Source of the DNA: a virus
Strand: one strand, 5' to 3'
Virus record (IMG/VR): IMGVR_UViG_3300023179_000077
Span: 13,054 to 77,053 of that record
Length of the DNA: 64,000 nucleotides
Each line of letters starts with the position of its first letter. Positions within the stretch are counted from its first letter, which is position 1. The notes under the pieces were generated by a model. It did not search any database, was not told where the DNA came from, and saw only the letters and a list, made by a program, of their open reading frames with translations. The position numbers and the translations under genes were made by a program. Of this stretch, positions 10,880 through 33,718 are shown piece by piece.

Positions 10880-10912
10880 CTATATTTATACGTGTTAAAT
10901 ACTACTTAAATA

Positions 10913-13418: not shown

Positions 13419-13428
13419 AACATATAAA

Positions 13429-13782
13429 ATGAAATTATTAGATATATTAAGAGAAGCAAATGAAAATATTACTGATATCATTGCTAATCTAACGCCAGAG
13501 CAACGTAAAGAATTATTTCAAAGAGGATCACTATTAATTCCTCAATCTCAAGATCCATCTCGTCCATCAACTATATCTTCAAAAGTAGTTCGTTTACCTA
13601 AAGCAGAAGAAATACAAAGAAAATTAATTAATGATAAAAAAGAATTTGAAGCATATCAATACCATCCTGATGAAGATATTAAAAAAATAGCTAAAGAAAT
13701 AAATAAACTATATAATCAATTATATGGTACTATAAAAGCTCTAGATAAAACATTAGAATTAAAAAAACTAGGTAAATTATAA
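13429..13782 (+). CDS. Hypothetical protein with capsid-targeting-like leader
   Basis: MKLLDILREANE leader. Confidence 0.45.
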   Translation: MKLLDILREANENITDIIANLTPEQRKELFQRGSLLIPQSQDPSRPSTISSKVVRLPKAEEIQRKLINDKKEFEAYQYHPDEDIKKIAKEINKLYNQLYGTIKALDKTLELKKLGKL

Positions 13783-15293: not shown

Positions 15294-18200
15294 ATGCCAA
15301 AGATTATTCCAAATTATACAACAATTCCTGGACAGGGATTTACTATTTTAGATTTAGATTTAGGAGAAATAGCACTTAACGTTAGTGATGGTAATCTATA
15401 TCTTAAAAAAGAAACAGCAGGAGTACCAAGTGTTGTTATACTAGCAGGTCCTGGAAATGTTGCTGTTAGTTCATCATATGCTTTAACATCATCATATGCT
15501 AATTATGCTGCTGTAGCATTAAATGCTACTAATTCTCTTAATACTTTATTTGGTATATTTTCACTTCATTCGTATTACTCTCAATTAGCAAGAACAGCAT
15601 CGTTTGCATATAAAGCAGATTATTCTGATTTTGCATTAAAGGCTTTAACAGCTACTAATGCTTCAACAGCATCTTTACCTATACGAGGTATAATAACAGC
15701 ATCAGCTGCTGGTTCTACAATTACATTTACTAAAGGCGATAGCAGTACTTTTAACGTTAGCGTAACAACAGCAACTGCTCAAACAGCATCATATGTTACT
15801 TCATCTAACGTTGATGGTCCTTATGGTAAAAATAGTATACTAACAGCATCATACGCTCTAACAGCATCATTACCGCTTCGAGGTTTAATAACAGCATCCG
15901 CTGTCGGCTCTACAATCACGTTTACTAAAGGTGATAGTAGTACTTTTAATGTTACTATAACAACAGCAACTGCCGAGACTGCATCATATGTATCTTCTTC
16001 TAATGTTGATGGTCCTTATGGAAAAAATAGTATATTAAGTGCGTCGTATGCTGTAACAGCATCTTATGTTTTAAATGCAATAAGCGCCTCGTATGCTCTT
16101 AGTGCCTCACAAGCATTTAGTTCATCATATGCGTTTAGTGCATCACAAGCAGTTAGCTCATCATACGCACTTAGTGCATCGTTTACTTCAACAGCAAGCT
16201 ATTCCCTATCATCATTATCAGCATCATATGCTAGTACTGCTTCTAATATAGAAGGAGGTGCTACAAATTATATTACACTATGGAGAACCAATACTGCTTT
16301 AACAAGCAGTGTAATGTATCAAAGTAGTAGTAATATTACTATAGGTGGTGGAGCTATTTTACCTTCAGCTAGGTTAGAAGTAAAAGGAGCAGGCTCTACA
16401 TCAGCTACTGCTGCTTTAAACGTTATAAATGCTTCATCAACAGATTTATTATACTTAAGAAATGATGGTTTTGTAGGTATAGGAACAGCATCTGCTGCTT
16501 CTACTGAAAATATGTTCATTAAAAAACAGTGGACTATATTTGATCAAGGAGTTGATCTTACAAATTATACTATAGTTGATATATCAAATACAACTAGTGT
16601 TTTAAGATTAGGAGTTGAAACTAATTCTGGAGGAGGTATAGCAACAAATTCTACAGCTTATGCTGGTATAATTGGTACTACAAAAAATATTCCATTACAG
16701 TTTATTACTAGCGGCAGTGTAAAAACTACTATAACATCAACAGGTAATTTTGGAATAGGTATTACATCACCGTTATATACTTTAGATGTATCAGGCAGTG
16801 CTCGTATTACTAGCTCAGTATTCTTACCAGGATTAATTAATACTAGTCAATCTCATCTTATAAGCTATAATTCAAGTTCAGGACAACTTTATTATTTAGG
16901 AACCGGTTCGTTTACAGCTAGTTGGGCTAATAATACTATTAGTGCTTCTAATGCACAAACAGCAAGTTATATTCTTAACGCTGTATCTGCATCGTTTGCT
17001 TCTACAGCTTCATACGTGTTAAATGCAGTCAGCGCATCATTTGCATCAACTGCTTCGTTATCTCAGAATGCATTAACAGCGTCATTTATAACAGCTTCTA
17101 ATGTTTGGGGCCCGTTTGGCTCAAACAGTATTATCAGTTCATCGTTTGCATCAACGGCTTCATATGTTCTTAACGCTGTGTCTGCATCATTTGCAGCAAC
17201 AGCATCATCCGCAGATAATTTTCTAGTTAGAGGCACACTTACTGCACAAACTATTATAGCACAAGTAATAACTTCATCAACTGACTTTGTTACTGGTTCA
17301 ACTCGTTTCGGTACTCAACTCACTAATACACATCAATTTACCGGCAGCGTAAGTATAACTGGTAGTTTAACTGTTACTGGAGCTGGAATTACAGGATCGC
17401 TGTTTGGAACAGCAAGTTGGGCAGTGAGCGCATCACAAGCACTTACAGCTTCATATGTGTTAAATGCTGTATCATCATCCTATGCACTAAGTGCATCACA
17501 AGCTCAAAATGCAACTACAGCATCATACGTGTTAAATGCTGTTTCAGCATCATTCGCTAGTACAGCATCGTTTGTTCAAAATGCTATATCTGCTTCGTTT
17601 GCTTCTACTGCTTCATATGTGTTAAATGCAGTTAGTGCATCATTTGCATCTACTGCTTCATTCGTTCAAAATGCAGTTAGTGCATCATTCGCATCAACAG
17701 CATCCTTAGCTCAAAATGCTTTAACAGCATCATTTGTAACAGCGTCTAATGTTTGGGGCCCATTCGGATCAAATAGTATTATTAGCTCATCGTTTGCTAG
17801 TACAGCATCCTTAGCTCAAAATGCAGTTAGTACTTCATTCGCCGCAACAGCATCATCCGCAGATAACTTTACAGTACGTGGTACACTTACTGCTCAAACA
17901 ATAGTAACTCAAGTTATAACTTCAAGTACTGATTTTGTAACTGGTTCATCTCGATTCGGTACATTATTAACAAATACACATCAATTTACAGGTAGTGTAA
18001 GTATAACAGGAAGTTTAAATGTAGTAGGAGCTGGAATTACAGGTTCATTGTTTGGAACATCATCGTGGGCTAACAATGCAATAAGTTCATCTTATGCATT
18101 ATCAGCATCACAAGCACAAAACGCAGTTAGTGCATCTTATGTATTAAACGCTGTAAGTGCTTCATTTGCTAGTACAGCATCCTATGTACTTAATGCAGTT

Positions 18201-20792
18201 AGTGCTTCATTTGCTAGTACAGCATCGTTCGTTCAGAATGCCGTTTCAGCATCGTTTGCTTCTACGGCTTCATTAGCTATAAATGCTCTAACAGCATCTT
18301 TTGTTACTGCTTCTAATATATTTGGCCCATTTGGTTCAAATAGTGTTATTAGTTCATCATTTGCTTCAACTGCTTCATTCGTCCAAAATGCCATTTCAGC
18401 ATCATTTGCTGCAACAGCATCTTCAGCTGATAATTTTACAGTACGTGGTACTCTTACTGCACAAACTATTGTGACACAAGTAATAACATCTTCAACGGAT
18501 TTTGTAACAGGTTCATCACGTTTTGGAACATTACTTAGTAATACACATCAATTCACGGGCAGTGTTTCAATTACAGGTTCGTTAAATGTTACTGGAGCCG
18601 GTATAACAGGATCATTATTTGGAACATCATCATGGGCGGTTAGTGCATCACAAGCAGTAACAGCTAGTTATGTACTCAATGCCGTATCTGCATCATTTGC
18701 TAGTACAGCATCGTTTGTTCAAAACGCAGTTAGTGCTTCGTTTGCATCAACTGCTTCATTCGTTCAAAACGCAGTTAGTGCATCATTTGCTAGTACAGCA
18801 TCATATATAACAGCATCTGGTGTATTCGGCCCATTCGGATCAAACAGTGTAATAAGCGCCTCACACGCAGTAACAGCAGCGTTTGCTGCTAATTCTAGCG
18901 GCGTGAGTGGCGGTGCTGCAAACTATATCACGATGTGGACTAGTGCTACAGCATTAAGCAGCAGCACAATATATCAAAGTACTGGTAATATTGGTATTGG
19001 TACTATAACACCTAATGCTAAACTTGATGTTAATGGCAATGCAATTATCACCGGTTCATTAACAGTAGCGCCAAACAGTAATATAGAATTTCAAGTTCAA
19101 ACTGCAGGTGTTAAAATAGGTAACGTAATTACTGATGCTCATACAATAACAGGTAGTGTAAATGTAAGTGGCAGTGTAACTGCAACTAACTTTACTGGTT
19201 CTTTATTTGGTACATCATCGTGGGCAGTAAATGCATTACAAGCATCAACAGCCAGTTATATACTTAATGCTATTTCAGCATCGTTTGCATCAACAGCCTC
19301 ATTTGTTCAGAACGCTGTTTCAGCATCATTTGCTAGTACAGCCTCATTCGTTCAAAACGCAGTTAGTGCTTCATTCGCTGCTATAGCATCATCTGCAGAT
19401 AACTTTGCTGTAAGAAATACATTAACTGCTACTACTATAGTAGTACAAACTATAACATCATCAATTGATTTCGTAACAGGTTCTAGTCGTTTTGGAACAT
19501 TACTTAGTAATACACACCAGTTTACTGGTTCAGTAAGTATGACGGGTAGTTTAACTGTTACTGGAGCTGGAATTACAGGATCATTGTTTGGTACATCATC
19601 GTGGGCAGTAAGTGCATCACAAGCATTAACAGCTAGTTATGTACTTAATGCTATTAGTGCTTCGTTTGTAGCAACCGCGTCATATATAACAGCATCAGGA
19701 GTATTTGGTCCATTTGGTTCAAACAGTGTTATTAGTGCTTCACACGCAGTAACAGCAGCGTTTGCTGCTAATTCTAGTGGTATAAGCGGTGGGGCTGCAA
19801 ACTATATTACAATGTGGACTGGGGCTACTACATTAAGCAGTAGTGTAATATATCAAAGTGCTGGTAATATAGGAATTAATACTATTTCTCCTAATGCTAA
19901 ACTTGACATTAATGGTAGTACTATTATTACAGGATCTTTAATTGTTAGTTCTTCTGCTGTAAGACTTACTGTTAGTGGTTCTCAAGCTTTATTTAATCTT
20001 ACTGGTACTACTCCTTCAATAGTAATATCAGGAAGTGGTTATACATTTGCTGCAAGAATTGGTTCAACATCTAATAATCAATATTCTTGGCTTACTAATA
20101 TATACTATGATGGAGCTAATTTCCAAAAAGATGATACTTCTCGTAGTGGTTGGAGAATGAATCAAGTAGCAGAAACTACTGATACTACTAGTTCAATGGA
20201 GTTTAATTATTTCCCTATTGGAACTACTATTTCTGTTCAACCTTTAGTAATAAAAAGAAATAGTTTATTAATAAATAACCAAATTACACCTGTTAATACG
20301 GGTTCTGTATCTTTTGTAAATTATGCTTTTGCAAACCAAACTGGATCTGGTTTTTATGGTAGTGGTTCTAATTTAGATAGTGTTAAACTAGCATTCAATA
20401 GATCTGATGAATTTGAATTCTCTTCAAGCGGCATGTTTAGAGCAGCCGATGATATAGTTGGTTTCTACTCATTCTCAGACCGCAATCTAAAATACGATGT
20501 AAGACAAGTATGTGGTAGTGTAGCGCTTGATCAAGTACAACAATTACAAGGTGTATATTATAAATGGGTAGGAGATCAAGGTAGTAGAGCAAATAGAGAA
20601 GAAATAGGTTTAATAGCACAAGATGTAGAAAAAATAATACCTCAACTTGTACGTGAACAAGAACGTTTAGGTCAAGGTACATTTAAAACAGTCGATTATG
20701 ATCATTTAACTGCGTTATTAATTGAAGCAATTAAAGAACAACAAAAACAAATCGACGAATTAAAATCTAGACTAGATGCCTTTACCAAGTAA
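15294..20792 (+). CDS. Giant tail fibre with C-terminal peptidase S74 intramolecular chaperone
   Basis: N-terminal LGEIALN..DG.LY anchor; SASFASTAS repeats; C-terminal SDRNLK...GLIAQDVE...VDY...LIEAIKEQQ. Confidence 0.88.
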   Translation: MPKIIPNYTTIPGQGFTILDLDLGEIALNVSDGNLYLKKETAGVPSVVILAGPGNVAVSSSYALTSSYANYAAVALNATNSLNTLFGIFSLHSYYSQLARTASFAYKADYSDFALKALTATNASTASLPIRGIITASAAGSTITFTKGDSSTFNVSVTTATAQTASYVTSSNVDGPYGKNSILTASYALTASLPLRGLITASAVGSTITFTKGDSSTFNVTITTATAETASYVSSSNVDGPYGKNSILSASYAVTASYVLNAISASYALSASQAFSSSYAFSASQAVSSSYALSASFTSTASYSLSSLSASYASTASNIEGGATNYITLWRTNTALTSSVMYQSSSNITIGGGAILPSARLEVKGAGSTSATAALNVINASSTDLLYLRNDGFVGIGTASAASTENMFIKKQWTIFDQGVDLTNYTIVDISNTTSVLRLGVETNSGGGIATNSTAYAGIIGTTKNIPLQFITSGSVKTTITSTGNFGIGITSPLYTLDVSGSARITSSVFLPGLINTSQSHLISYNSSSGQLYYLGTGSFTASWANNTISASNAQTASYILNAVSASFASTASYVLNAVSASFASTASLSQNALTASFITASNVWGPFGSNSIISSSFASTASYVLNAVSASFAATASSADNFLVRGTLTAQTIIAQVITSSTDFVTGSTRFGTQLTNTHQFTGSVSITGSLTVTGAGITGSLFGTASWAVSASQALTASYVLNAVSSSYALSASQAQNATTASYVLNAVSASFASTASFVQNAISASFASTASYVLNAVSASFASTASFVQNAVSASFASTASLAQNALTASFVTASNVWGPFGSNSIISSSFASTASLAQNAVSTSFAATASSADNFTVRGTLTAQTIVTQVITSSTDFVTGSSRFGTLLTNTHQFTGSVSITGSLNVVGAGITGSLFGTSSWANNAISSSYALSASQAQNAVSASYVLNAVSASFASTASYVLNAVSASFASTASFVQNAVSASFASTASLAINALTASFVTASNIFGPFGSNSVISSSFASTASFVQNAISASFAATASSADNFTVRGTLTAQTIVTQVITSSTDFVTGSSRFGTLLSNTHQFTGSVSITGSLNVTGAGITGSLFGTSSWAVSASQAVTASYVLNAVSASFASTASFVQNAVSASFASTASFVQNAVSASFASTASYITASGVFGPFGSNSVISASHAVTAAFAANSSGVSGGAANYITMWTSATALSSSTIYQSTGNIGIGTITPNAKLDVNGNAIITGSLTVAPNSNIEFQVQTAGVKIGNVITDAHTITGSVNVSGSVTATNFTGSLFGTSSWAVNALQASTASYILNAISASFASTASFVQNAVSASFASTASFVQNAVSASFAAIASSADNFAVRNTLTATTIVVQTITSSIDFVTGSSRFGTLLSNTHQFTGSVSMTGSLTVTGAGITGSLFGTSSWAVSASQALTASYVLNAISASFVATASYITASGVFGPFGSNSVISASHAVTAAFAANSSGISGGAANYITMWTGATTLSSSVIYQSAGNIGINTISPNAKLDINGSTIITGSLIVSSSAVRLTVSGSQALFNLTGTTPSIVISGSGYTFAARIGSTSNNQYSWLTNIYYDGANFQKDDTSRSGWRMNQVAETTDTTSSMEFNYFPIGTTISVQPLVIKRNSLLINNQITPVNTGSVSFVNYAFANQTGSGFYGSGSNLDSVKLAFNRSDEFEFSSSGMFRAADDIVGFYSFSDRNLKYDVRQVCGSVALDQVQQLQGVYYKWVGDQGSRANREEIGLIAQDVEKIIPQLVREQERLGQGTFKTVDYDHLTALLIEAIKEQQKQIDELKSRLDAFTK

Positions 20793-23700
20793 TGGACCAA
20801 TATCGTTTGGAGATATAAATGAAGAAGCTCATCTAACAAGAAATACAGCTAATACTATATTAGCAGGTGGAAGTACTCCCCAAGTCGGTTCATTAGTAAA
20901 GTTATATGAAGCTACTGTTAATCAAAGTGCACCTCACGCGTTATCTGAGTTTAGAGGAGTATATTATGATGCTGTTAGTACTACTTTAGAAGTTAAGTAT
21001 GAAACAAACTATTTTTACGCTAATATATATGATTATATAAATTCAACAACAATAACAATATCTGCTGCTTCGCTAAATGTAATTGGTTATGATGATGGCT
21101 CCTGCTCATCTCTTTCAGGAGAATCAGATACAAGTTCAAATGCTTTAGTAATAAATGGTGGTTCATTAAATGCTAATCAACCTGGTAATTATGGAATGAC
21201 TTGTAATACAACTTATTATAAATTTTCTGGTAATTTAGTAATAAACGGGACTAGTAGATATGATGGAGAACAATTCTATATAGGATCAACCTATGTTACT
21301 CTATCATTTCCGCAGTCTTGTACTCCCTATTTCTGTTAATATATTTATTGCTGCCTATATAGGCCTTAGAACACCATAGATATGGCTCAACAAATACTTA
21401 AGCTACGTCGCAGTAGCATACCCGGGAAAGTTCCTAGTACTTCTTCTTTAGATTATGGAGAAATAGCGCTTAACACGTATGACGGTATAGCATACATGAA
21501 GCGATCTGGCTCTAATGGAGATGAAATAATTGCTATAGGCGTTGGAACATCAGGTAGCTTTACTGGTTCGTTTTTTGGTACTTCAAGTTGGGCCTACAAT
21601 GCAATATCTGCTGCTTACGCAGCAACCGCATCATCAGCTGATAATTTTACTGTTAGAGGTACACTTACCGCACAAACAATAGTAGTACAAGTTATTACTT
21701 CATCACAAGAATTAATAACTGGTTCTCTTATTGTTAATGGTCCTTTAACTGTTAATGGTGGAATAACAGGTTCATTACAAGGTACATCAAGTTGGGCTAA
21801 TAATGCTGTACAAGCAATAAATGCTGCTACTGCCTCTAATATATTAGGTGGTACTGCAACATATATACCTTTCTTTAAAACTAATACTACATTAGGCAAT
21901 AGCACAATGTATCAGATTAGTAATAGTTTTAGCACAACAAGCATTGCTATTAATGAAACTAATATCACTTCAGCTAATCCTGAAGCATTATATGTGTTTC
22001 AGACACATCCAACATCAATAAATGTATTAACAGGTAAAGGTAACTTAAATAACTATTTACAAAATAATATACAAAACACCAATCAAGGAGTTAGTGCTTC
22101 ATCTGATGTAGTTGCCACTGCAAATAACGGTAATGAAGATACCAACTACATTGATATGGGTATTAATAGCCAAAACTATAGTGCTGGTTTTATTGGTGAA
22201 GCTAATGATGCTTATTTATATTCAATAGCAAATAATTTACATATTGGTAATGCTAATGATAATGGTACTCATGTTGGTTTCTTTGTTGGAGGAACTGATG
22301 TAGAAGCATATAATAAATTACAATTAAGTCCCAACAACCAGCATAAAATGTCTGGTTCATTAGATATAAGCGGTAGTTTAACTATTAATAATGGTATTAC
22401 TGGATCTTTATTTGGAACTGCGAGTTGGGCTATAAATGCTTTAACAGCTTCCTATGCTGCAAACGTACCTGCAACAGCATCATATGCATTACAAGCATTA
22501 AGTGCATCATTTGCATCAACAGCTTCCTATGCTGCAAACGTACCTGCAACAGCATCATATGCATTACAAGCATTAAGTGCATCAAACGCATTAACAGCAT
22601 CTTATGCTTTAAATGCTCAAGGATCAGGATTCCCATATACTGGATCTGCAATAATAACTGGTAGTTTAATAGTAACTGGTTCTGTAAATGCAAGTTTAGG
22701 CTTTACTGGATCGTTATTTGGCACTGCATCATGGGCTGTTAGTGCATCACAAGCATTAACTGCTAGTTATGTGTTAAATGCAGTATCTGCTTCGTTTGCT
22801 ACATCAGCATCTAGAGCAGTAACAGCATCACTTGCTACAACAGCATCATATGTACTAAATGCTGTTAGTGCATCGTTTGCTACCACTGCTAGCTATGTAC
22901 TTAACGCTGTTAGTGCATCGTTCGCTACTACATCTTCATATGTACTAAATGCTATTAGTGCATCGTTTGCTTCTACTGCTTCATCTGTCAACCAGCTTAA
23001 CCAAGCAGTAGTAATATCAGGATCATTAACAGTAACTGGAAGTTCAGGTACAACACTACTTGTTTCAAACGCTGACACTTTAACGTTTACTGGCTCTATA
23101 TTCACAAGCGGTTCTATTGTATCAACAGGTAGTTTAAGTATAACTAGTATAACTAGTTCATTATTTGGAACAGCATCATGGGCAAATAATGCTATATCAG
23201 CATCATATGCATTATCTGCTTCGCAAGCACAAAATGCTGTAACTGCCTCTTATATACTCAATGCTGTTAGTGCCTCATTCGCTGCTACAGCATCATCAGC
23301 AGACAACTTTACAGTTAGAAATACACTTACTGCTCAAACTATAGTAGTACAAACCATCACTTCATCAGTTGATTTTGTTACTGGTTCTACTCGTTTTGGT
23401 ACTTTACTATCAAATACACATCAATTTACTGGATCAGTAAGTATAACAGGTAGTTTAAATGTAGTTGGAGCTGGAATAACAAGTTCATTATTTGGAACTG
23501 CTAGTTGGGCTAATAATGCTATAAGTTCATCATATGCTGTAAGTGCATCACAAGCTCAAAATGCTGTAACAGCATCTTACGCATTAACAGCTTCTTATGC
23601 TTCTAACGTACCTGCTACTTCATCATATGCTTTACAAGCATTAAGTGCATCGTATGCCAATAATGCAGTAACAGCATCTTATGTATTAAATACAGTTAGT

Positions 23701-26700
23701 GCTTCGTATGCTTCAACTTCATCTTTACCTTTAGAAGGTATAGTAACCGCTTCGGTTGCCGGTTCAACAATAACATTCACTAAAGGTAATAGCAGTACTT
23801 TTAATGTTACTATAGCAACAGCTACTGCTGAAACGGCATCATATGTTACTTCATCTAATGTTGATGGTCCTTATGGAAAAAATAGCATATTAAGCGCTTC
23901 GTATGCTGTCACGGCATCATATACTGTATCTGCTTCATATGCTACTAGTGCATCACAAGCATATAATGCTACTACAGCATCATATGTACTAAATGCAATA
24001 AGTGCATCTTATGCTACTAGTGCTTCTTACGCTGTATCTGCATCACAAGCTCAAAATGCAACAACTGCAAGCTATACATTAAACGCAGTTAGTGCATCAT
24101 ATGCTCAAACAGCATCTTATGCTACAAACATTACAATATCAGGATCAATCACTGGAGTTGATTATATTAATTTTGATACTACAGCTTCATTTGCTGCTGC
24201 TGTTGGTAGATTAGGATATGACAATGGTGAAGGTACTTTAACTTTAGGACTACAAGGCGGAAATGTTACTTTAAAAATTGGAAATGATTTATACCAATAC
24301 GTCTATAATAATACAACATCATCATTAACATTAGGTCAAGTAGTTTACATTTCAGGATCGCAAGGTAATAGAATAGCAGTTAAACTAGCTTCTGCAACTG
24401 CAGAACAAGGTTCAGCAAATACATTAGGATTTGTAGCTGAAACTATTGCTGCTGGTGCTGAAGGTTGGGTAATGACTGAAGGTACTTTAAGAAAATTAAA
24501 TACTACTGGATTAATAGGAGGACAATTAATATACTTAGATGTTATACCTGGTGCTTATACTCAAACACCTCCTGTAGCTCCTGCTCACGGAGTAAGATTA
24601 GGATACGCTGAAAGAATAAGTGCTACTGTAGGATCTATCTATGTAAAAATAGATAATGGATATGAATTAGGAGAATTACATAATGTAGTTGATTCTACTA
24701 CAACGTCTTCATTTGGGGATTTACTTGTTATAAGTGGTAGTGTTTGGATAAATTCAAAACAACTAACTGGATCTTACGGATTAACAGGTTCGTTAAGTGC
24801 TACATCATTTACTGGTAGTTTATTTGGAACATCAAGCTGGGCGAACAATGTAATTAGTGCTTCTTATGTTTCAAATGCTGGTTTATTAAATGGAACTTCA
24901 TCTGCTGTTTTTGCTACTACTGGTTCAAATAATTTTATAGGAATTGAAAATATAACAGGTAGTTTAAACGTATCAGGTTCTCAATCGTTTATAGGAACTT
25001 CTATTAGTGTAGGAAACCAAATAGTTACTGGTAGTTTAATTACTAGTGGCTCTAACACATTAATAGGAAATACTAGTCTTACTGGATCTGTAAATATATC
25101 TGGTTCTACAACACAAGTTGGAAATAATAATTTACTTGGTAGTACTACTTTATCAGGTAGTGTTGTTGTGTCTGGATCTCTTAATGCTTCTGCTAATCTT
25201 ACATTACAAGGTCATTTAAGATTAGATCCAGGACAAGATCCAGGCAATAATAACTTCACAGCATCTTACTTGTTTACGTCTGCTTCTAATACAAATACTG
25301 GCTATGATTTATATTATCGTCAAGATGGTAACTTAATCAAGTTCAAATGGTTAGAAGGTGGGTTAAGTTCAGGTATATTATATGGAGGAACAATTTCTTA
25401 TAGCGGCAGTGTAATATATGTTAAAAAAGGTACAGGCATCATTAATAACATGAATGCTACTACCAGTTCAGAAATTAACCCAATTCTTACATATGTTAGT
25501 TGGAATGATTATACCTCGTCTGCTCAATATATTACATCATCTCAAATTACTTATCTATATGTTAATCCATCAGGAAGTATAGTTCAACAAACTTCTTACT
25601 TTGATCAAACACAGTATGAACAAGCTCTGCCTTTAGGATTAGTTGTTCATCCAAACTATACTACTATTACTTCACAAGAAAGTAGCGTTCAAACTACATA
25701 TGATAGTGATACTCAACAAAATGATTTTATTAGAGCATTTGGTCCTATAAAAGTAAATGGATTTACTCCTTCTGGTCAAACTGGTTCTTTAAGAATTAAT
25801 ATTGGAAGCGGTACTGCATTTACTTTAGGAGGATTTTACAGTCAAAATCAAAACAGTCCTTCACACTATACAGCGACTGCTGCAACTACTGCTTCTCTAG
25901 CTAGAGCTTACAGAACAGGCTCAGGAGTATACTTAGACAGTAATAATAATGCTTATTATACTGTTATTGATCCTTCAAAGTATGATAATGGAAATGGATT
26001 ATCAAACGTAGCTGGAACTAATGCTACTATACAACGTATATTCTATAATCCTGTAGATAAACGAGCAGTAGTTTATTATGGTCAGAACACATATAGCTCA
26101 TTAGCAAACGCATTAACTGCTTTACCATCAGATAGTTTCACAGAAGGAGAATTTACAGCTAAAGCATTACTTTTTGTTGGTTATATAATAGTACAAGGTA
26201 ATGCTAGTGATCTATCCAATACCGGTCAAGCACTTTTCATTCAAGCAGGTGTATTCCGAAATACAGCTGGTGGTTCTTCTGGTGGAGGAGCTATAGCCCA
26301 ATCATTAGACGATTTATCAGATGTAACTATTACTACCCCAACAAATGGACAAGCACTAATATATCAAGGTGGTGTATGGGTAAATGGTACACCTCTAAAT
26401 GCAACTTCTGCTTCATTTGCTACATCTGCTTCTCAAGCACAAAATGCTGTGACAGCATCATATATAATAAACGCGGTTAGTGCATCATATACTTTATCCG
26501 CTTCAAATGCTCAAACAGCATCTTATGTTTTAAACGCTATCAGTTCTTCATTCGCTACTAGCGCATCGTATGCATTATCAGCTTCACAAGCCCAAAATGC
26601 GGTATCTGCTAGCTATGTACTAAATGCTATTAGTGCATCATTCGCTACTAGTGCATCATACGCATTATCAGCATCACAAGCACAAAACACAGTAACAGCT

Positions 26701-26964
26701 AGCTATATATTAAACGCTGTTAGTGCATCATATGCCGCTACCGCTTCATCAGCAGACAATTTCTTAGTAAGAAGTACATTAACTGCTCAAACATTAATAG
26801 TTCAAACTATTACTTCAAGCACTGACTTTGTAACTGGTTCATCTCGTTTTGGTACACTGTTTAGTAATACTCATCAGTTCACAGGCAGTGTAAGTATAAC
26901 TGGATCATTAAACGTTGCTGGAGCCGGAATAACAGGATCATTGTTTGGAACGGCATCGTGGGCA
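17211..26964 (+). repeat. Six 213-nt (71-aa) module copies ADNF.VR.TLT...GITGSLFGT.SWA shared between two fibre genes
   Basis: Copies at 17211-17423, 17859-18071, 18426-18638, 19395-19607, 23299-23511, 26752-26964; partial copies near 21637, 29680 and 31742. Confidence 0.9.
20776..21339 (+). CDS. Putative fibre-tip/adhesin protein
   Basis: LP.NGPIS..DI..E...PHALSEF.G N-terminal motif; overlaps the end of the S74 fibre gene. Confidence 0.5.
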   Translation: MPLPSNGPISFGDINEEAHLTRNTANTILAGGSTPQVGSLVKLYEATVNQSAPHALSEFRGVYYDAVSTTLEVKYETNYFYANIYDYINSTTITISAASLNVIGYDDGSCSSLSGESDTSSNALVINGGSLNANQPGNYGMTCNTTYYKFSGNLVINGTSRYDGEQFYIGSTYVTLSFPQSCTPYFC

Positions 26965-29900
26965 AGTAATGCAACCACTGCAAGTTATATATTAAACGCA
27001 GTTAGTGCTTCGTTTGCTAGCACGGCTTCTAATGTGTTAGGAGGAGCTACTAATTATATTCCACTATGGAACGGAGCTACTACGTTGAGTAGCAGTGTAA
27101 TATATCAGAGCAGTGGAAACGTTCTTATTGGTACTACAACAGATAATGGATACAAATTGAGTGTCCAAGGAGGAGATGTTACTATACAATCTGGTCGTAC
27201 ATTGGATTGGGGTTTTGGAAACATGCGTATAATAAATAGTACGTACGACATGGTGTTCCAAACCTACAATGGCGCATCTACTGCTGAAGCGATGCGTATA
27301 AAGGGATCTGGAAATGTAGGTATTGGTACTTCTGCTCCATCAGCAAAACTTCACGTATCTGGTTCTAATACTGACTCACTATTACTGTTAGCATCTCCCG
27401 GCGCTACGAGTGCTTTGTTTGTAAGTGGTAGTGGTAATGTAGGTATAGGTACTACGAGTCCTGCAGCTTTTGCTAATTATACAACTACAACGATTGATGG
27501 AACTTTAGGTTCTGTCATCCAGTTTCGACGTGCTACTGTTGACGGTTTGCAAATTGCAATAGACGCAAATAAGACTCAATTTCTTGAGCAACGCGCATTA
27601 AGAATGGCCTTCGGTACTAACAACACCGAAAGGATGAATATTTTAGCTAACGGTAATGTCCGTATTGCAGCAAATGCTACAGATTCAGGAGAGCTTTTTC
27701 AAGTTGATGGAACAGCAAGAGTAACGCAGGATGCTTATTTTGCAACGACATCAGGTGGCATATCCATTGGTTCAACCTCTACTGGTGGGGCAAAACTCAA
27801 TATAGTAAATGGTGACTTTCAAATGTCGCCTACATATAAACTAACATTAGCATCAACTACCGGGCAAATATATTTAAGGGCAACTTCAGGTACAGGTGAC
27901 TTGCAAATGTTCACCAACTTCACTGAACGTATGCGCATCACATCCGCTGGTGATGTCGGCATCGGCACCACATCCCCTAACGCAAGACTCGACGTAAGCG
28001 GCAGCACAATAATATCAGGTTCCTTCACAGTAGCTCCAAGCAATGCCATAGAACTACAGGTGACTAGCACAGGAACAAAAATAGGCAACGTTATAACAGA
28101 TACTCACACCGTAACAGGTAGTTTAGGAGTGAGTGGTAGTGTAACTGCAACTAGCTTTACAGGTTCTCTATTCGGAACCTCATCTTGGGCAAGTAACGCC
28201 GTAAGTGCTTCGTTTGCTAGCACGGCTTCTAATGTATTAGGAGGAGCTACTAGTTATATTCCGTTATGGAACGAAGCTACTACGTTGAGTAGTAGTGTAA
28301 TATATCAGAGTGGTAGTAACATAGGAATTGGAACTACAACTCCAGCAGAAAAATTAAGAGTTAATGGAACATTTTCAAGCAACGCTTTATGGACAGATAA
28401 TACAACAATATCATATTGGGGAAATTATCCAACACCATACGGAGGTTTTACTTGGGATACTGGATATGCTACAATATACGCTATTGCAGGAAATATATTA
28501 AGATTGGGTTCTAACGGAGCTAGTCCTGATATGACTATAGATTTATCAGGAAATGTAGGAATAAATACTACTTTACCAACAGCTAGACTACACGTTTCTG
28601 GTTCAAGTGCAGACTCTTTATTGCTATTATCATCTCCTGGAGTTACAAACGCATTGTTTGTGAGTGGTAGTGGAAACGTTGGTATTGGAACAACTACTCC
28701 TGGAGATGCTTTGCAAATAACTAAATCAAATCCGTACATAATAATGACGGGCGATGATGCAAGTTATACGAATGCTGGTATACAAATGATTGCCAACGGT
28801 GCATCTAACCAAAGAGCTTTGGGAATATTTATGTTCCAATCTGTTGCAGGACATGAGTGGTTTATGGGTCAACCTTATGCAGGAGCAGATAGTTTTGTTA
28901 TCAATCGAAGAGTAACAAGTACGCCATCATCGCAATCAAATCCGAAAGGTATTGGCGCGTCTACAGGAACAGTATTTATCGTAACCTCATCAGGTAGTGT
29001 TGGTATCGGCACTACGAATCCGCAAGGAAAATTACATGTTAATGGAGGAGATGTCTTTTTTGGAGATGAAACCAATGTAGCAACAAATATAAGATTAAGA
29101 AGAAATGGAGCTACTGTTGGCTCAATCGGTACATACAATTCACAACTTGAATTATGTGGTGGTAGTTCGATTGGAGCATCTCATATGGTTATTACCTCTA
29201 CTGGTAATGTTGGTATTGGAATAAATGCTCCTACAGCAAAACTTCATGTTTCAGGCAGTACAACAACTAATTTATTAGTTGGGACTAATGACTTGTTTGT
29301 AAGTGCGAGTGGGAATATAGGAATAGGAGAAACAAACCCAACAAGTAAATTAGTAATAAAAGATCTTTCAACATCAGTATTTCAGGCTATAAATGCAGGA
29401 GTAGGTAGTACAGCAGGAATATCATTTCAAAACAACAGCGTTGAACAACTAATAGTTCGTTCAAGAGGTGATATAAGCCGCAGTACAATATATTCGCAAG
29501 TATGGGATTTTGAATTAGGAACTAATGCTGATAAAAATTTACTTTTATATACTAATGGTCAAGAGCGCGTAAGAATAAATAATGGAGGAAATGTCGGCAT
29601 CGGCACCACCACCCCCAACGCCAAACTCGACGTTAACGGCAACGCAATAGTGACCGGTTCTCTTACCGTCACCGGTACAATCACTGCTCAAACGCTAGTA
29701 GTACAAACTATTACTTCATCAATAGACTTCGTAACAGGTTCGTCTCGCTTCGGTACTCTACAAAGCAACACACATCAATTTACAGGTAGCGTAAGCATAA
29801 CTGGATCATTAAATGTAACTGGAGCTGGAATTACCGGATCGTTGTTTGGAACTGCATCGTGGGCAAGTAATGCAATAACTGCATCTAATGCATTAACTGC

Positions 29901-30903
29901 ATCGTTTGTACAGAATGCAGTCAGTTCTTCTTTTGCTACTAGCACTGCTGCTGTAGCAGGTACAACAAACTATATAAGCAAGTTTACTAGTAACACTGCA
30001 ATTGGCAATTCACAGATATTTGACGATGGAAATAGTGTTGGCATAGGCACAGCAAGTCCTACAGCCAAGCTTGAAATTTCTAATACGTCTGCTAATATAT
30101 TATATTTATATTCTACTTCTACTACTGGTACAACAAATAATTCAAGTTTTAGAATTGGCTCGTACGATGGCACGCAAGTATCCGTTGGTACGTATCTTAC
30201 TGAACTAGCTAGTAGTTGGAATAGCTCTAATTTTGCTGGTGGGAATTTTCCTAATTCAAGTGTTTTACTTGGATCAAAAGCTAATGGTTTAGGAATTGGT
30301 GCAAGTTCAGCAACAGGAAATATACGTTTCTTCACGGGCGGTGAAACAGGAGGTAATGAACGTATGCGCATCACTTCTGGTGGTAATATCGGCATCGGTA
30401 CTACTACCCCCAACGCTAAACTCGACGTAAGTGGGAGCGCAATCATCACCGGCTCACTCACCGTCACCCAAGGCATCACCGGCTCACTCTTCGGCACCGC
30501 ATCATGGGCAAACAATACAACAAGCGCATCATACGCCGCCACAGCATCATACTCAAATAACTTCACAGTTGCAAACCAACTCATAATAGATTCTACACTC
30601 ACTGATTATACTACAGTAGCATCATCAATAGTAGGATCGAATAACTTATTCACTCAAGCAACTGGCTCATACACATCAGCATTCTTCAAATACACTGCTA
30701 CTACAGGTAGCAACAGCAGAGCTGGTGAAGTAGTAGCAGTATGGAACGGCACAACAGTACAATACTACGATAATTCAACTGTAGATATAGGTAATACAAC
30801 AGCAGTAACATCATCTGTTTCTATTGTAGGCGGTGATGTACAGTTTAATATGCAAACCAATACTTCAGGATGGAGAATAAAATCATTAGCAACGTTCATG
30901 TAA
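21382..30903 (+). CDS. Giant modular tail fibre (3173 aa)
   Basis: LKLRRS..PGKVP...LDYGEIALN..DG anchor, SAS/TAS repeats and arrays of GNVGIGT-delimited modules. Confidence 0.85.
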   Translation: MAQQILKLRRSSIPGKVPSTSSLDYGEIALNTYDGIAYMKRSGSNGDEIIAIGVGTSGSFTGSFFGTSSWAYNAISAAYAATASSADNFTVRGTLTAQTIVVQVITSSQELITGSLIVNGPLTVNGGITGSLQGTSSWANNAVQAINAATASNILGGTATYIPFFKTNTTLGNSTMYQISNSFSTTSIAINETNITSANPEALYVFQTHPTSINVLTGKGNLNNYLQNNIQNTNQGVSASSDVVATANNGNEDTNYIDMGINSQNYSAGFIGEANDAYLYSIANNLHIGNANDNGTHVGFFVGGTDVEAYNKLQLSPNNQHKMSGSLDISGSLTINNGITGSLFGTASWAINALTASYAANVPATASYALQALSASFASTASYAANVPATASYALQALSASNALTASYALNAQGSGFPYTGSAIITGSLIVTGSVNASLGFTGSLFGTASWAVSASQALTASYVLNAVSASFATSASRAVTASLATTASYVLNAVSASFATTASYVLNAVSASFATTSSYVLNAISASFASTASSVNQLNQAVVISGSLTVTGSSGTTLLVSNADTLTFTGSIFTSGSIVSTGSLSITSITSSLFGTASWANNAISASYALSASQAQNAVTASYILNAVSASFAATASSADNFTVRNTLTAQTIVVQTITSSVDFVTGSTRFGTLLSNTHQFTGSVSITGSLNVVGAGITSSLFGTASWANNAISSSYAVSASQAQNAVTASYALTASYASNVPATSSYALQALSASYANNAVTASYVLNTVSASYASTSSLPLEGIVTASVAGSTITFTKGNSSTFNVTIATATAETASYVTSSNVDGPYGKNSILSASYAVTASYTVSASYATSASQAYNATTASYVLNAISASYATSASYAVSASQAQNATTASYTLNAVSASYAQTASYATNITISGSITGVDYINFDTTASFAAAVGRLGYDNGEGTLTLGLQGGNVTLKIGNDLYQYVYNNTTSSLTLGQVVYISGSQGNRIAVKLASATAEQGSANTLGFVAETIAAGAEGWVMTEGTLRKLNTTGLIGGQLIYLDVIPGAYTQTPPVAPAHGVRLGYAERISATVGSIYVKIDNGYELGELHNVVDSTTTSSFGDLLVISGSVWINSKQLTGSYGLTGSLSATSFTGSLFGTSSWANNVISASYVSNAGLLNGTSSAVFATTGSNNFIGIENITGSLNVSGSQSFIGTSISVGNQIVTGSLITSGSNTLIGNTSLTGSVNISGSTTQVGNNNLLGSTTLSGSVVVSGSLNASANLTLQGHLRLDPGQDPGNNNFTASYLFTSASNTNTGYDLYYRQDGNLIKFKWLEGGLSSGILYGGTISYSGSVIYVKKGTGIINNMNATTSSEINPILTYVSWNDYTSSAQYITSSQITYLYVNPSGSIVQQTSYFDQTQYEQALPLGLVVHPNYTTITSQESSVQTTYDSDTQQNDFIRAFGPIKVNGFTPSGQTGSLRINIGSGTAFTLGGFYSQNQNSPSHYTATAATTASLARAYRTGSGVYLDSNNNAYYTVIDPSKYDNGNGLSNVAGTNATIQRIFYNPVDKRAVVYYGQNTYSSLANALTALPSDSFTEGEFTAKALLFVGYIIVQGNASDLSNTGQALFIQAGVFRNTAGGSSGGGAIAQSLDDLSDVTITTPTNGQALIYQGGVWVNGTPLNATSASFATSASQAQNAVTASYIINAVSASYTLSASNAQTASYVLNAISSSFATSASYALSASQAQNAVSASYVLNAISASFATSASYALSASQAQNTVTASYILNAVSASYAATASSADNFLVRSTLTAQTLIVQTITSSTDFVTGSSRFGTLFSNTHQFTGSVSITGSLNVAGAGITGSLFGTASWASNATTASYILNAVSASFASTASNVLGGATNYIPLWNGATTLSSSVIYQSSGNVLIGTTTDNGYKLSVQGGDVTIQSGRTLDWGFGNMRIINSTYDMVFQTYNGASTAEAMRIKGSGNVGIGTSAPSAKLHVSGSNTDSLLLLASPGATSALFVSGSGNVGIGTTSPAAFANYTTTTIDGTLGSVIQFRRATVDGLQIAIDANKTQFLEQRALRMAFGTNNTERMNILANGNVRIAANATDSGELFQVDGTARVTQDAYFATTSGGISIGSTSTGGAKLNIVNGDFQMSPTYKLTLASTTGQIYLRATSGTGDLQMFTNFTERMRITSAGDVGIGTTSPNARLDVSGSTIISGSFTVAPSNAIELQVTSTGTKIGNVITDTHTVTGSLGVSGSVTATSFTGSLFGTSSWASNAVSASFASTASNVLGGATSYIPLWNEATTLSSSVIYQSGSNIGIGTTTPAEKLRVNGTFSSNALWTDNTTISYWGNYPTPYGGFTWDTGYATIYAIAGNILRLGSNGASPDMTIDLSGNVGINTTLPTARLHVSGSSADSLLLLSSPGVTNALFVSGSGNVGIGTTTPGDALQITKSNPYIIMTGDDASYTNAGIQMIANGASNQRALGIFMFQSVAGHEWFMGQPYAGADSFVINRRVTSTPSSQSNPKGIGASTGTVFIVTSSGSVGIGTTNPQGKLHVNGGDVFFGDETNVATNIRLRRNGATVGSIGTYNSQLELCGGSSIGASHMVITSTGNVGIGINAPTAKLHVSGSTTTNLLVGTNDLFVSASGNIGIGETNPTSKLVIKDLSTSVFQAINAGVGSTAGISFQNNSVEQLIVRSRGDISRSTIYSQVWDFELGTNADKNLLLYTNGQERVRINNGGNVGIGTTTPNAKLDVNGNAIVTGSLTVTGTITAQTLVVQTITSSIDFVTGSSRFGTLQSNTHQFTGSVSITGSLNVTGAGITGSLFGTASWASNAITASNALTASFVQNAVSSSFATSTAAVAGTTNYISKFTSNTAIGNSQIFDDGNSVGIGTASPTAKLEISNTSANILYLYSTSTTGTTNNSSFRIGSYDGTQVSVGTYLTELASSWNSSNFAGGNFPNSSVLLGSKANGLGIGASSATGNIRFFTGGETGGNERMRITSGGNIGIGTTTPNAKLDVSGSAIITGSLTVTQGITGSLFGTASWANNTTSASYAATASYSNNFTVANQLIIDSTLTDYTTVASSIVGSNNLFTQATGSYTSAFFKYTATTGSNSRAGEVVAVWNGTTVQYYDNSTVDIGNTTAVTSSVSIVGGDVQFNMQTNTSGWRIKSLATFM

Positions 30904-30916
30904 AAAATAAAATAAT

Positions 30917-31099
30917 ATGTTTAAAGTAGAAATGCAATTTATTCCAGGAAACAGTCAGATGTGGGTCCTCAAACTAAATCCAGACGATCCCATTTACGAA
31001 TACGACAACGAAGCTGAAGCACAAGCTAAAGCAGAAGAACTTCAAGCAGCAGACTCAACAGGCAGGTTGTATCGTGTATCGACTGTTATGGCTGTTTAA
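30917..31099 (+). CDS. Small hypothetical protein, possibly a fibre accessory
   Basis: 60-aa ORF with A-rich leader between fibre genes. Confidence 0.5.
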   Translation: MFKVEMQFIPGNSQMWVLKLNPDDPIYEYDNEAEAQAKAEELQAADSTGRLYRVSTVMAV

Positions 31100-31117
31100 T
31101 ATTTATTGTAAACCCCC

Positions 31118-31141
31118 TTCCTAGGGAGAGTGAACTAGGAA
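31118..31141 (+). promoter_or_regulatory. 5'UTR hairpin with purine-rich loop
   Basis: TTCCTAG-GGAGAGTGAA-CTAGGAA between late motif 31099 and ATG 31151. Confidence 0.45.
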
Positions 31142-31150
31142 ACAAGTATA

Positions 31151-33718
31151 ATGCCAAATGAATTTGTCGCAAGGAACGGCATAATTGCCCTCAATAACTC
31201 AATAATTACCGGTTCACTTACTGTCACTCAAGGTGTAACAGCATCGCTGTTCGGTACATCATCGTGGGCAACTAACGCATTAACTTCATCTTATATATTA
31301 AGCGCTGTAAGCGCTTCGTTCGCTAGTACTGCTTCTAATGTATTAGGAGGAGCTAGTAGTTATGTTCCACTTTGGAATACTGCTACTAGTTTGAGTAGTA
31401 GTGTGATATATCAGAGTAGTGGAAATGTTGGTATTGGTACTACGAGTCCAAGCTCAAAATTGCACGTCTATAATTTATCCGCTGCTAATGATGTCAGCAC
31501 TACTATATTAGTAATTGAAGCAGGGACAGACGCGACGTTGGGCCCTCTTTCTTTTATTACAAATTTAAGGCCAAGCACAACAGCATCAAATCGAAGAGTC
31601 GAAATATATGCAGGGGATAATGGAAACTACCGAAATGTTACATTCCCTTATGCAAATATTGGCATCGGCACCACTACCCCTAACGCCAAACTCGACGTCA
31701 ACGGCAACGCAATTGTTACAGGATCTCTTACTGTTACTGGCACTATTACTGCGCAGACGCTAGTAGTACAGACAGTAACTTCTTCTGTTAGTTTCGTAAC
31801 AGGATCTAGCAGATTTGGTAGTTCGTTAAGCAATACTCACGATTTCACGGGATCTGTTGGTGTGACTGGTAGTTTGACAGTAACTGGTGATATATCTTCG
31901 ACAGGAAATTTTAAATCTCCAACTACTACTTACTATTTCAATCCAAATACTGGATTATTTAACATTACTAACGGATATATATCGGGATTATACAGCCCAG
32001 GAAGTGTTTTAAGAGCATCTTTCTCTGATACCGCCACTGTTTTTAGCGGAAATGTAAATTTCGCCGGATCAGGTATATGGAATTCTTCAGGAAATGTTGG
32101 TATAGGTACCACTTCCCCTACAGCTAGACTTCACGTTTCTGGTTCAAACAGCGATTCACTGTTACTAGTAGCATCACCTGGTGCTACGAGTGCTCTGTTT
32201 GTGAGCGGAAGTGGAAACGTAGGGATTGGCACTGTAAGTCCCACAGCACCGCTTACGTTTGGTAAATCTGTTTACGCTGCCCCAACAAGCGAAGACTTTT
32301 TCAGAATTAAATTTGAGGATGTAGGTGGAATTGCTAATGATGTAGGCATAGGAATGCCAGCGACTGGCGCAATCGGTTTTAATATTACTGACGTTTCCGG
32401 ATATTACGCATTCTATAAAGGTCCAACGGCAACGGAATTAGTAAGAATTACAAATGCCGGGAATGTTGGTATTGGTACCACTTCCCCATCCGCCCGCCTT
32501 CACGTCTCAGGAAGTACTACAGCTAATCTATTAGTTGGTACTAGCGATTTATTTGTGAGTGCGAGTGGAAATGTAGGTATTGGAACTACAAGTCCAACTG
32601 AAAAACTAACAATCAGAGGGAATGGAGCTAAGATGTTAATAGAAGCAGCATCCGATCCATCCGGGTATTATACTTACTTACAATCTAATTACGATGCTGT
32701 AAATCCATTTGTATTAGTTAGTCAAGGATTCGATATACTCGGATCAAGAACAGCTACATCTCCTGTAGGAACTAGAGCTACTTATCTAAACAGTTACTAT
32801 GATATTTCTTTAAATACAGGAGGAGCCACAGCTTCTTTAGCCACTTCTAAATTGTATATTTCAGCTAGTGGTAACGTAGGTATAGGAACCACTTCTCCCA
32901 ACGCTAAACTAGATGTAAGCGGTAGCGCTATAGTATCAGGATCATTCACTGTAGCTCCTAGCAACGCTGTAGAACTGCAAGTAACGAGTACAGGTACTAA
33001 AATAGGAAATATAATAATAGACGCTCACACTGTTACTGGTAGTTTAAGTGTAAGTGGTAGTACAGTAGTAGTAGGATCTTTAACAATAGGTACATCATCA
33101 CTAGGATCTACTGAAAATACTTTAGTTGTAGGACCATCCCCTGCAGGAGGAACTGGAGAAGGTGGACAAATACTACTTCAAGCAACAGGAGGTACGTATA
33201 CCTCAGCATCAATGCTTGATAATTATCAAAATAGATTCAGAATACTAAGAGGTACAAATGCTGTTAGTGATGCAGAATATTTTAATGTTAGTTTACATTC
33301 TGGTCAGCTTGGATTTAGCAGATATACCGGATCAGGAGCATTTCCTGGAACAGCTGTGGCAAACTTGGCTGTAGATAGCGGTGGTAATGTAATTACAGTA
33401 GCTACTGGAGGTGGTGGAGGTAGTGTAACTATAAACAACAACACAGACAACTATCTTATATCAGCAACAGGTACGGCTAATACTTTAAACGGAGAAGCCA
33501 ATTTACAATTTAATGGTACTGCATTATCAGTAACAGGATCATTTACTGTTATCACAGGCAGTTCAATAGAATTCCAAGTTACTAATACTGGTGTTATAAT
33601 AGGTAATACAACAACAGATACTCACACTATTATAGGAGACGTGACAATAACAGGAAGTATAATAGGAGCCGAACCAATACCTGCTGGAGCTAAATTATAT
33701 TTATTTTATAATTACTAA
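31151..33718 (+). CDS. Modular tail fibre (855 aa)
   Basis: Shares GNVGIGT-delimited modules with the 3173-aa fibre. Confidence 0.8.
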   Translation: MPNEFVARNGIIALNNSIITGSLTVTQGVTASLFGTSSWATNALTSSYILSAVSASFASTASNVLGGASSYVPLWNTATSLSSSVIYQSSGNVGIGTTSPSSKLHVYNLSAANDVSTTILVIEAGTDATLGPLSFITNLRPSTTASNRRVEIYAGDNGNYRNVTFPYANIGIGTTTPNAKLDVNGNAIVTGSLTVTGTITAQTLVVQTVTSSVSFVTGSSRFGSSLSNTHDFTGSVGVTGSLTVTGDISSTGNFKSPTTTYYFNPNTGLFNITNGYISGLYSPGSVLRASFSDTATVFSGNVNFAGSGIWNSSGNVGIGTTSPTARLHVSGSNSDSLLLVASPGATSALFVSGSGNVGIGTVSPTAPLTFGKSVYAAPTSEDFFRIKFEDVGGIANDVGIGMPATGAIGFNITDVSGYYAFYKGPTATELVRITNAGNVGIGTTSPSARLHVSGSTTANLLVGTSDLFVSASGNVGIGTTSPTEKLTIRGNGAKMLIEAASDPSGYYTYLQSNYDAVNPFVLVSQGFDILGSRTATSPVGTRATYLNSYYDISLNTGGATASLATSKLYISASGNVGIGTTSPNAKLDVSGSAIVSGSFTVAPSNAVELQVTSTGTKIGNIIIDAHTVTGSLSVSGSTVVVGSLTIGTSSLGSTENTLVVGPSPAGGTGEGGQILLQATGGTYTSASMLDNYQNRFRILRGTNAVSDAEYFNVSLHSGQLGFSRYTGSGAFPGTAVANLAVDSGGNVITVATGGGGGSVTINNNTDNYLISATGTANTLNGEANLQFNGTALSVTGSFTVITGSSIEFQVTNTGVIIGNTTTDTHTIIGDVTITGSIIGAEPIPAGAKLYLFYNY

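Follow-up and report, generated by a model that had tools for sequence, protein, structure and literature searches.

Two fibre genes of an uncultured freshwater myovirus probably encode chains of domains, each bounded by a capping-loop motif, and whole domains have probably been added, removed and replaced via in-frame recombination at or near the caps. The genes lie in a 64,000-nucleotide stretch (the window) of a 77-kb virus record that is about 46% complete, with about half of the genome outside the record. At these joints, related phages have different modules. The genes are thus one more clear instance of how phages are known to remodel their host-recognition fibres; they are not an integron-like system.

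Fibre genes and module arrays

Three fibre ORFs are found on the plus strand: gene A (15294-20792, 1832 aa), gene B (21382-30903, 3173 aa), and gene C (31151-33718, 855 aa). A Pfam search found a C-terminal Peptidase_S74 chaperone in gene A (PF13884, residues 1728-1787, E = 2.5e-14), found no such domain in genes B and C, and found no domain in any module. Composition predicts 0.0004 matches to the exact motif GN[VI]GIGT in the 5860 residues, and 12 are found. Including near-variants, there are about 24 copies (14 in gene B, 7 in gene C, and 3 in gene A), and the longer form GN[VI]GIGT..P..KL.V occurs about 21 times across genes B and C.

The last third of gene B has three module arrays. Array B1 (27115-27969) has modules of 65, 41 (a spacer), 107, and 65 aa, with cap motifs at 27115, 27310, 27433, 27754 (degenerate), and 27949 (exit). 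Array B2 (28315-29607) has modules of 78, 41 (a spacer), 107, 70, 36 (a spacer), and 92 aa, with caps at 28315, 28549, 28672, 28993, 29203, 29311, and 29587 (exit). Array B3 (30031-30402) is one 117-aa module with caps at 30031 and 30382. Gene C has array C1 (31421-31672), a single 77-aa module with motif copies at 31421 and 31652, and array C2 (32090-32890), whose units of 41 (a spacer), 82, 36 (a spacer), and 101 aa are accompanied by motif copies at 32090, 32213, 32459, 32567, and 32870. The cassette-like arrays that a preliminary description had reported in the 3173- and 855-aa genes are therefore present (from first to last motif, 27115-27949, 28315-29587, 30031-30382, 31421-31652, and 32090-32870). 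The modules range from 36 to 117 aa, with up to six cap-bounded units in series. Unit types were assigned by direct labelling; single-linkage clustering had merged spacers with exits.

Most arrays are preceded by the entry flank YIPLWN..T.LSSSVIYQS, which is absent at array C2 (32090), and the arrays end with the exit flank TTPNAKLDV[NS]G. Gene A has two places, 18984-19004 and 19863-19883, where one cap motif is all that stands between the entry and exit flanks, as had been described for the 1832-aa gene. The short spacers said to recur between genes were also located. The 41-aa spacer is found at 27310, 28549, and 32090 (75-78% nucleotide and 79-88% amino acid identity), and the 36-aa spacer is found at 29203 and 32459 (74% and 79%, respectively). 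The other claim, that the modules are mutually unrelated, agrees with profile-profile comparison of the module interiors with their conserved ends trimmed: 54 of 55 pairs are unrelated, the sole related pair being 27433-27753 and 30031-30381.

The motif as a published capping loop

Is the motif a special docking site for recombination? The string GNVGIGT was not found in a literature search. According to Caulton et al. 2024 (PMC10769870), this motif is a capping loop on the edges of beta-helices in the mosaic adhesive trimer (MAT) fibres of Bdellovibrio, with the consensus printed as V-G-G/N-pi-x-x-P-x-x-x-L. The ..VGIGT..P...L copies of the window (about 24 in genes A, B, and C) align to the motif copies of the Bd2133 fibre and agree with this consensus. 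The Bd2133 structure (8OND) is matched three times by the motif, with E-values of 3.6e-8 for gene C and 4.5e-10 for gene B; other matches to solved structures are 8OML (1.9e-5), 8OL4 (6e-4), and 8OJN (2e-3). By sequence alignment, the domain borders stated for Bd2133 (PMC10769870), G683 and E813|N814, correspond to the G of GNLGLGT and to the end of ..KLHVE. The array region is matched by more than 4900 proteins. Judged by these alignments, the motif is the capping loop already published as the boundary of trimeric beta-helix domains in S74-type fibres and Bdellovibrio MAT fibres, and is no special dock. Thus, each "cassette" may be regarded as a fibre domain with its own caps, and the earlier picture of foreign insertions splitting a native string is unsupported.

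Each module is predicted to adopt the trimeric beta-helix fold. A monomer model (pLDDT 64) has short strands around each cap and low-confidence interiors. In a Foldseek search with this weak model, the top 10 matches are all MAT fibres, yet the TM-score to MAT chains is only about 0.1.

The MAT fibres (Bd2133, 8OND; Bd3182, 8OJN/8ONC; Bd1334, 8OML) share with the window fibres the V-G-x-x..P...L capping-loop motif, a conserved strand ahead of it (..ERMRIT..G), and domain borders at the motif. Gene A has the S74 chaperone, while genes B and C lack it and resemble the NS74 subgroup. On the other hand, the MAT fibres belong to a predatory bacterium while the window proteins are phage virion fibres, and the arrays of up to six serial cap-bounded units distinguish the window fibres from MAT fibres. 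The MAT fibres have been likened to T5 pb1 and the K1F endosialidase, and their mosaicism was placed mainly at the tip domain, the caps not being treated as exchange points (PMC10769870).

Evidence for module exchange at the caps

The closest relative, L009, has about 85-90% DNA identity and is the one fairly close relative compared. At all three junctions of gene C, it is inside the 21-nt motif that nucleotide identity to L009 falls from about 85% to a random level of 25-30%, so that the breakpoints lie in the repeat, as the preliminary description had proposed to check in a close relative. At the C1 site, the 77-aa module is replaced by a 111-aa module in L009, and array C2 has four units here but nine units (564 aa) in L009. 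Past the last cap motif (residues 564-840), gene C is again 85% identical to a 1757-aa fibre of L009. Thus, L009 has other modules and other module counts between conserved flanks, in line with the claim that exchangeable modules are bounded by the motif; an identical number and order of modules, which would have spoken against that claim, was not found in L009. Gene A does have sites of the kind described as empty, with a single motif between the flanks, but the one at 18984 is also empty in the L009 orthologue, and thus no insertion was caught there.

All ten array-facing ends of the DNA matches lie 9 nt or less from a motif. A comparison of all DNA-match ends from 27000 to 33000 with the motif positions gave no significant association (10 of 64 ends, p = 0.73), because the repetitive framework contains most of them; only the array-facing ends are informative. 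The larger exchanges between this phage and L009 have breakpoints in SASxA and GSLFGTASWA repeats, not in GN.GIGT, which fits homology-driven exchange. In gene B of L009, 15-residue SASxA repeats replace the whole B3 unit, comprising entry, module, and exit.

A search of other proteins gave 23 matches between one of their modules and a window module, at 50-72% identity. Over the 40 residues past each cap, identity in these matches is 22%, and the background is 18%. Module c3 differs in that its upstream spacer accompanies it in two proteins. Single window modules therefore recur beside unrelated neighbours, and module exchange at the motif borders is supported by these sequence comparisons. 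No exchange was caught in progress. In a second freshwater study, eight identical pieces covering five junctions were found in the same order, and the arrangement was unchanged. Metagenome-contig "joints" and loose ends at motifs were considered as population rearrangement and rejected. Their sides are only 20-32 nt and fibre genes of other organisms share the motif word, so they are not evidence of rearrangement within a population. Of the metagenome runs, X3 and X4 have only small shares and give no indication of habitat.

The DNA spelling of the motif is conserved no more than the protein requires. The longest shared nucleotide run between motif copies averages 6.8 (maximum 19), and identical motif residues use the same codon less often (0.37) than in the codon-usage null (0.42). 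Since this DNA homology is small, the breakpoints may be placed by something other than homology at the motif. Patches of C-ending codons are found at four of the five array-exit motifs, all on the plus strand, and also on caps in L009. One at 27898-28026 covers the exit cap motif of array B1 and has a C3 of about 0.5, where the mean for the gene is 0.12; similar patches are at 29566-29682, 30367-30525, and 31640-31729. The C-rich exit word had no match in 2.9 million viral contigs, so that a DNA seam with this spelling is not widespread. One could suppose that the cap motif and exit flank form a selected, standardised in-frame seam, the patches being an exchange-favouring DNA signal or the footprint of repeated biased gene conversion at a hot spot of recombination, but I consider this quite doubtful.

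How might the domains be exchanged? Genes B and C would encode long trimeric tail fibres whose distal parts are beta-helix domain chains, with the structural motif GN[VI]GIGT..P..KL.V of this fibre class as the start and end of each domain. Because every domain of a large family has the same ends, in-frame recombination of two fibre genes at or next to a cap would still give a foldable fibre. The route may be general homologous or short-homology recombination (by a phage UvsX-like recombinase or host RecA) or unequal crossing-over between repeats. Whole domains would be gained, lost, and replaced over evolutionary time. The domains probably bear lateral receptor-binding surfaces, and the modules may thereby affect host range.

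Other readings have to be weighed against this recombination at or near the caps. Illegitimate or random recombination might occur anywhere, with only the chimeras joined at domain borders folding and surviving, so that the motif would mark breakpoints through protein selection and would not guide recombination. The position of the motif at a structural domain border, its DNA unconserved beyond protein need, and the short exact shared runs are all consistent with this. However, identity switches inside the 21-nt motif itself at all three junctions, and other breakpoints versus L009 lie in DNA repeats, the SASxA 15-mers, which are not obvious domain borders and point to homology-driven events. 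I regard such filtering by selection as unlikely. Far less likely is that nothing was exchanged, and that orthologous modules diverged at their sites through strong diversifying selection, with the caps conserved. Module c1 and its L009 counterpart both begin with ..LHVY and retain 57-67% nucleotide identity for about 40 nt past the motif, as such divergence would predict. This reading is nevertheless largely refuted by the differences in module number and length at orthologous sites, the counterparts with unrelated neighbours in other proteins, and the fall of identity, over about 20 nt, from 85% to a random level.

A dedicated machine acting on the repeat, whether an integron-like integrase, a shufflon or invertase, or a diversity-generating retroelement, is the least probable of all. 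It is suggested only by the cassette-like look of the arrays, and the half of the genome outside the record leaves room for it. In the 77-kb record, however, there is no match to RVT_1 (PF00078), Phage_integrase (PF00589), or Resolvase (PF00239). All modules are on one strand, and no inverted repeats bracket them; only six short, chance-like inverted pairs were found. The direct repeats are only 60-81% identical, so there are no near-identical template/variable pairs. The motif kept at the protein level only and the identical arrangement in the second freshwater study also argue against such a machine. The integron-like diversification proposed earlier is thus not borne out. The accompanying statement that no dedicated recombinase is visible holds for site-specific enzymes in the 77-kb record, but the window does have a general, UvsX-like (RecA-family) recombinase gene (52683-53789, plus strand), the only recombinase found in the record.

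Relation to known diversification systems

The likeness to integrons is only in the picture of unlike units separated by a repeat. Integrons have an IntI integrase, attI/attC DNA sites, and separate gene cassettes, none of which is found here, whereas the window units are in-frame protein domains and their repeat is kept at the protein level. A diversity-generating retroelement needs a reverse transcriptase and a template/variable repeat pair, and neither was found in the 77-kb record. Similarly, the site-specific recombinase and inverted crossover sites of shufflons and invertible tail-fibre segments (Rci, Gin, Cin, Pin) were not found here.

Smug et al. 2023 is reportedly a general survey of protein-fragment shuffling in phage receptor-binding proteins. 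As in the window fibres, domain-level tail-fibre mosaicism across unrelated phages is its subject. Another parallel is the T-even gp37/gp38 type. According to PMC3157838 (2011, citing Tetart et al. 1996, 1998), recombinants of related phages break in or near conserved glycine-rich motifs, which gives new combinations of recognition determinants. In both gp38 and the window fibres, variable segments are interspersed with conserved, glycine-rich structural motifs, and breakpoints between relatives lie in or adjoin the motifs. However, gp38 has a fixed number and order of motifs, and what varies is the loops within a single small domain, while the window fibres differ in how many whole domains (36-117 aa) they have and in what order. 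The two types are unrelated in fold and motif, and the motif DNA of the window is not conserved.

These results extend a known principle, that of mosaic fibres and exchange at conserved motifs, and do not reveal a new mechanism. They give a nucleotide-resolution view of an uncultured freshwater myovirus and its relatives rebuilding receptor-binding fibres by swapping, adding, and dropping cap-bounded domains. Thousands of fibre proteins from phages and bacteria have modules bounded by this cap motif. Domain borders drawn at the caps could aid the annotation of these giant proteins, which now lack it, and could help in designing chimeric fibres for laboratory phage-host systems.

Motif-bounded arrays in the fibre genes

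The IMG/VR record is 77 kb in length with an estimated completeness of about 46%, and the window covers 64 kb of it. The gene content is that of a myovirus (major head protein, tail sheath, baseplate hub). Three consecutive plus-strand genes are assigned to tail fibre proteins by PHROGs: gene A (15294-20792; 1832 aa), which has a C-terminal Peptidase_S74 chaperone domain, gene B (21382-30903; 3173 aa) and gene C (31151-33718; 855 aa). Between 15450 and 26750, genes A and B carry a 15-residue (45-nt) repeat (ASYVLNAVSASFAST type) in long runs, which are interleaved with a 300-nt framework unit present seven times (SADNFTVRGTLTAQT...FTGSVSITGSL...GSLFGTxSWA); together, the two presumably form the fibre shaft.

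Composition alone would give 0.0004 exact copies of the motif GN[VI]GIGT in 5860 residues; 12 were found. If close variants are counted, gene B has 14 copies, gene C has 7 and gene A has 3. The copies stand where the preliminary description had placed them, and its array layout was borne out. Motif-bounded modules form the plus-strand arrays B1 (27115-27949), B2 (28315-29587) and B3 (30031-30382) in gene B, and C1 (31421-31652) and C2 (32090-32870) in gene C. An entry flank (YIPLWN..T.LSSSVIYQS) precedes most arrays, C2 being without it, while an exit flank (TTPNAKLDV[NS]G) ends all five. In gene A, the two flanks enclose a single motif at 18984 and at 19863. The short spacers described earlier as recurring between genes were also confirmed: three copies of a 41-aa unit (27310, 28549 and 32090) and two of a 36-aa unit (29203 and 32459), at 74-78% DNA identity. 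With 12 residues cut from the start of each module and 10 from the end, 54 of 55 profile-profile comparisons of the interiors gave no relatedness. Untrimmed modules have in common the strand after the motif (KL.V.G) and the strand preceding the next one (..ERMRIT..G).

Module differences among related loci

The closest relative found, L009, is a 97-kb viral contig with 85-90% DNA identity in conserved genes. Gene C has its orthologue in the 1757-aa fibre of L009 (85% identity over C residues 564-840). The DNA match at 31313-31443 stops at the motif at 31421, and those at 31664-31875 and 32876-33608 begin inside the motifs at 31652 and 32870. In register, both exit junctions show the identity per 21 nt passing from 0.76-0.95 on one side of the motif to 0.19-0.43 on the other; the entry junction has a slower drop, which reaches about 0.3 some 60 nt beyond the motif. 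At both the C1 and the C2 site the flanks are conserved; C1 has a module of 77 aa in C and 111 aa in L009, and C2 has four units (260 aa) in C versus nine (564 aa) in L009. Gene C differs from its close relative in module number and length with DNA matches breaking at the motif, as the preliminary description would have it. Across 55 related loci, DNA matches have 10 ends that face an array, and each of them is no more than 9 nt from a motif; inside the arrays there is hardly any DNA match.

The larger differences in gene B follow another pattern. About 1030 residues with arrays B1 and B2 (26560-29660; aa 1728-2760), amounting to two framework-plus-array units, are absent from L009 (345-8543), and L009 has 15-residue SASxA repeats instead of the entry-module-exit unit of B3 (29960-30480; aa 2860-3033). 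Here the breaks are within SASxA and GSLFGTASWA repeats, so the claim that breakpoints fall in GN.GIGT holds for the junctions of C but not for these changes. As for gene A, the L009 site matching 18984 is likewise empty. L009 has a different fibre tip beyond the second site (19863), the replacement starting at the entry flank. The replaced tip lies between this flank (left border ..SSS.IYQ) and a conserved stretch before the S74 chaperone; against the related locus L065 (G001:C1:54538-58542), about 165 aa in the window (19840-20360; A aa 1520-1690) face a shorter, unrelated stretch of about 110 aa.

Counterparts of single modules with 50-72% identity turn up in other proteins and contexts. 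Module c1 (31421-31651) lies within multi-module arrays of the proteins P0009 and P0089; c2 (32213-32458) stands directly before the exit flank in P0005, and P0023, P0035, P0113 and L023 have it in other arrays; c3 (32567-32869) is present in P0004, P0006 and the related viral contig L012. In 23 module matches, the 40 residues outside each bounding motif are 22% identical, compared with 18% for random 40-mers; as an exception, the upstream spacer accompanies c3 in two proteins. The L012 fibre is in two overlapping ORFs (9989-11764 and 11755-13845) with the c3 homologue spanning the split, which may be a frameshift, real or due to an assembly error.

In a freshwater metagenome from a different study, eight pieces identical to the window span five module junctions in unchanged order; on that scale, therefore, the arrangement is stable. 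In metagenomic run X1 from the source lake, contigs of much higher depth (up to about 200x) match 27420-27703 and 32532-32815 for only 20-30 nt at the motifs and then diverge. Thus, the motif's DNA word is also used by fibre genes of other, more abundant members of the community.

Structural identity of the motif

The Bdellovibrio Bd2133 fibre (PDB 8OND) is matched by gene C (E = 3.6e-8), the alignment pairing the motif three times, and by the array-bearing part of gene B (E = 4.5e-10), which also matches 8OML, 8OL4 and 8OJN. This motif is what Caulton et al. 2024 (PMC10769870) call the "capping loop"; it edges the intertwined trimeric beta-helix domains of S74 and non-S74 fibres alike. The beta-helix domains of Bd2133 are G683-E813 and N814-A907 (PMC10769870). 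In the 8OND alignment, GNLGLGT begins with G683 and ..KLHVE ends with E813; thus, the crystallographic domain borders fall on the motif. An AlphaFold monomer of C aa 300-650 was weak (pLDDT 64), as expected if the fibre is an intertwined trimer, and its best-modelled parts are the caps and spacers; with this weak model, the top Foldseek hits were all MAT fibres (E 1e-5 to 1e-3, TM about 0.1). The array region has matches in more than 4900 database proteins, and an S74 domain is present in many of these. Structurally, the three fibres belong to the S74/MAT-type class. The cassettes are best read as beta-helix domains, each with its own caps. The "empty site" of the preliminary description does exist in A as a lone motif between contiguous flanks, but is best read as a single cap. 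From the clefts between the capping loops of Bd3182 (PMC10769870), the modules may be lateral receptor-binding surfaces.

Proposed recombination at the caps

Is the motif a special recombination dock? At the DNA level, its copies are no more alike than protein sequence and codon usage predict (same-codon fraction 0.37 versus 0.42 for the null), the longest shared run between copies averaging 6.8 nt with a maximum of 19; the joint in the window is conserved solely as protein. The 77-kb record, about 46% complete, has no reverse transcriptase, tyrosine integrase or serine recombinase. No inverted repeats bracketing modules were found, and direct repeats are just 60-81% identical. These results argue against the integron-like system proposed earlier. 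The accompanying statement that no dedicated recombinase is visible stands for those three enzyme types, but a UvsX-like RecA-family recombinase gene lies at 52683-53789 (phrog_97, E = 4e-18; PF00154 above cut-off).

Over four of the five exit motifs, the share of C-ending codons rises in sharp patches to about 50%, versus gene means of 8-15%, with no increase in G-ending codons. The plus-strand patches lie at 27898-28026 (B1), 29566-29682 (B2), 30367-30525 (B3) and 31640-31729 (C1). L009 fibre caps bear similar patches (10439-10543 and 12377-12487 of L009), while A/T-ending codons are used instead at the empty sites of gene A and in L019, a more distant relative. In 2.9 million viral contigs, the exact C-rich exit word had no further occurrence. 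Candidate explanations for the patches are an imported tract, biased conversion and a codon preference tied to the most conserved residues.

The arrays are proposed to have arisen by general homologous or short-homology recombination, together with unequal crossing-over, among the many repeats of the fibre genes, the partners being repeats of the same genes and those of co-infecting relatives. Recombinants with the joint at a cap would survive, since the ends of all domains in this family are compatible. The motif may then merely mark viable joints through selection, which fits its low DNA conservation, or it may attract crossover through homology, which fits the breakpoints seen in other repeats.

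Domain mosaicism of phage receptor-binding proteins is reportedly well documented. The closest functional analogue is T-even gp38/gp37, in which exchanges take place within or close to conserved glycine-rich motifs (PMC3157838). Unlike gp38/gp37, the fibres described here differ by entire domains, in number and order.
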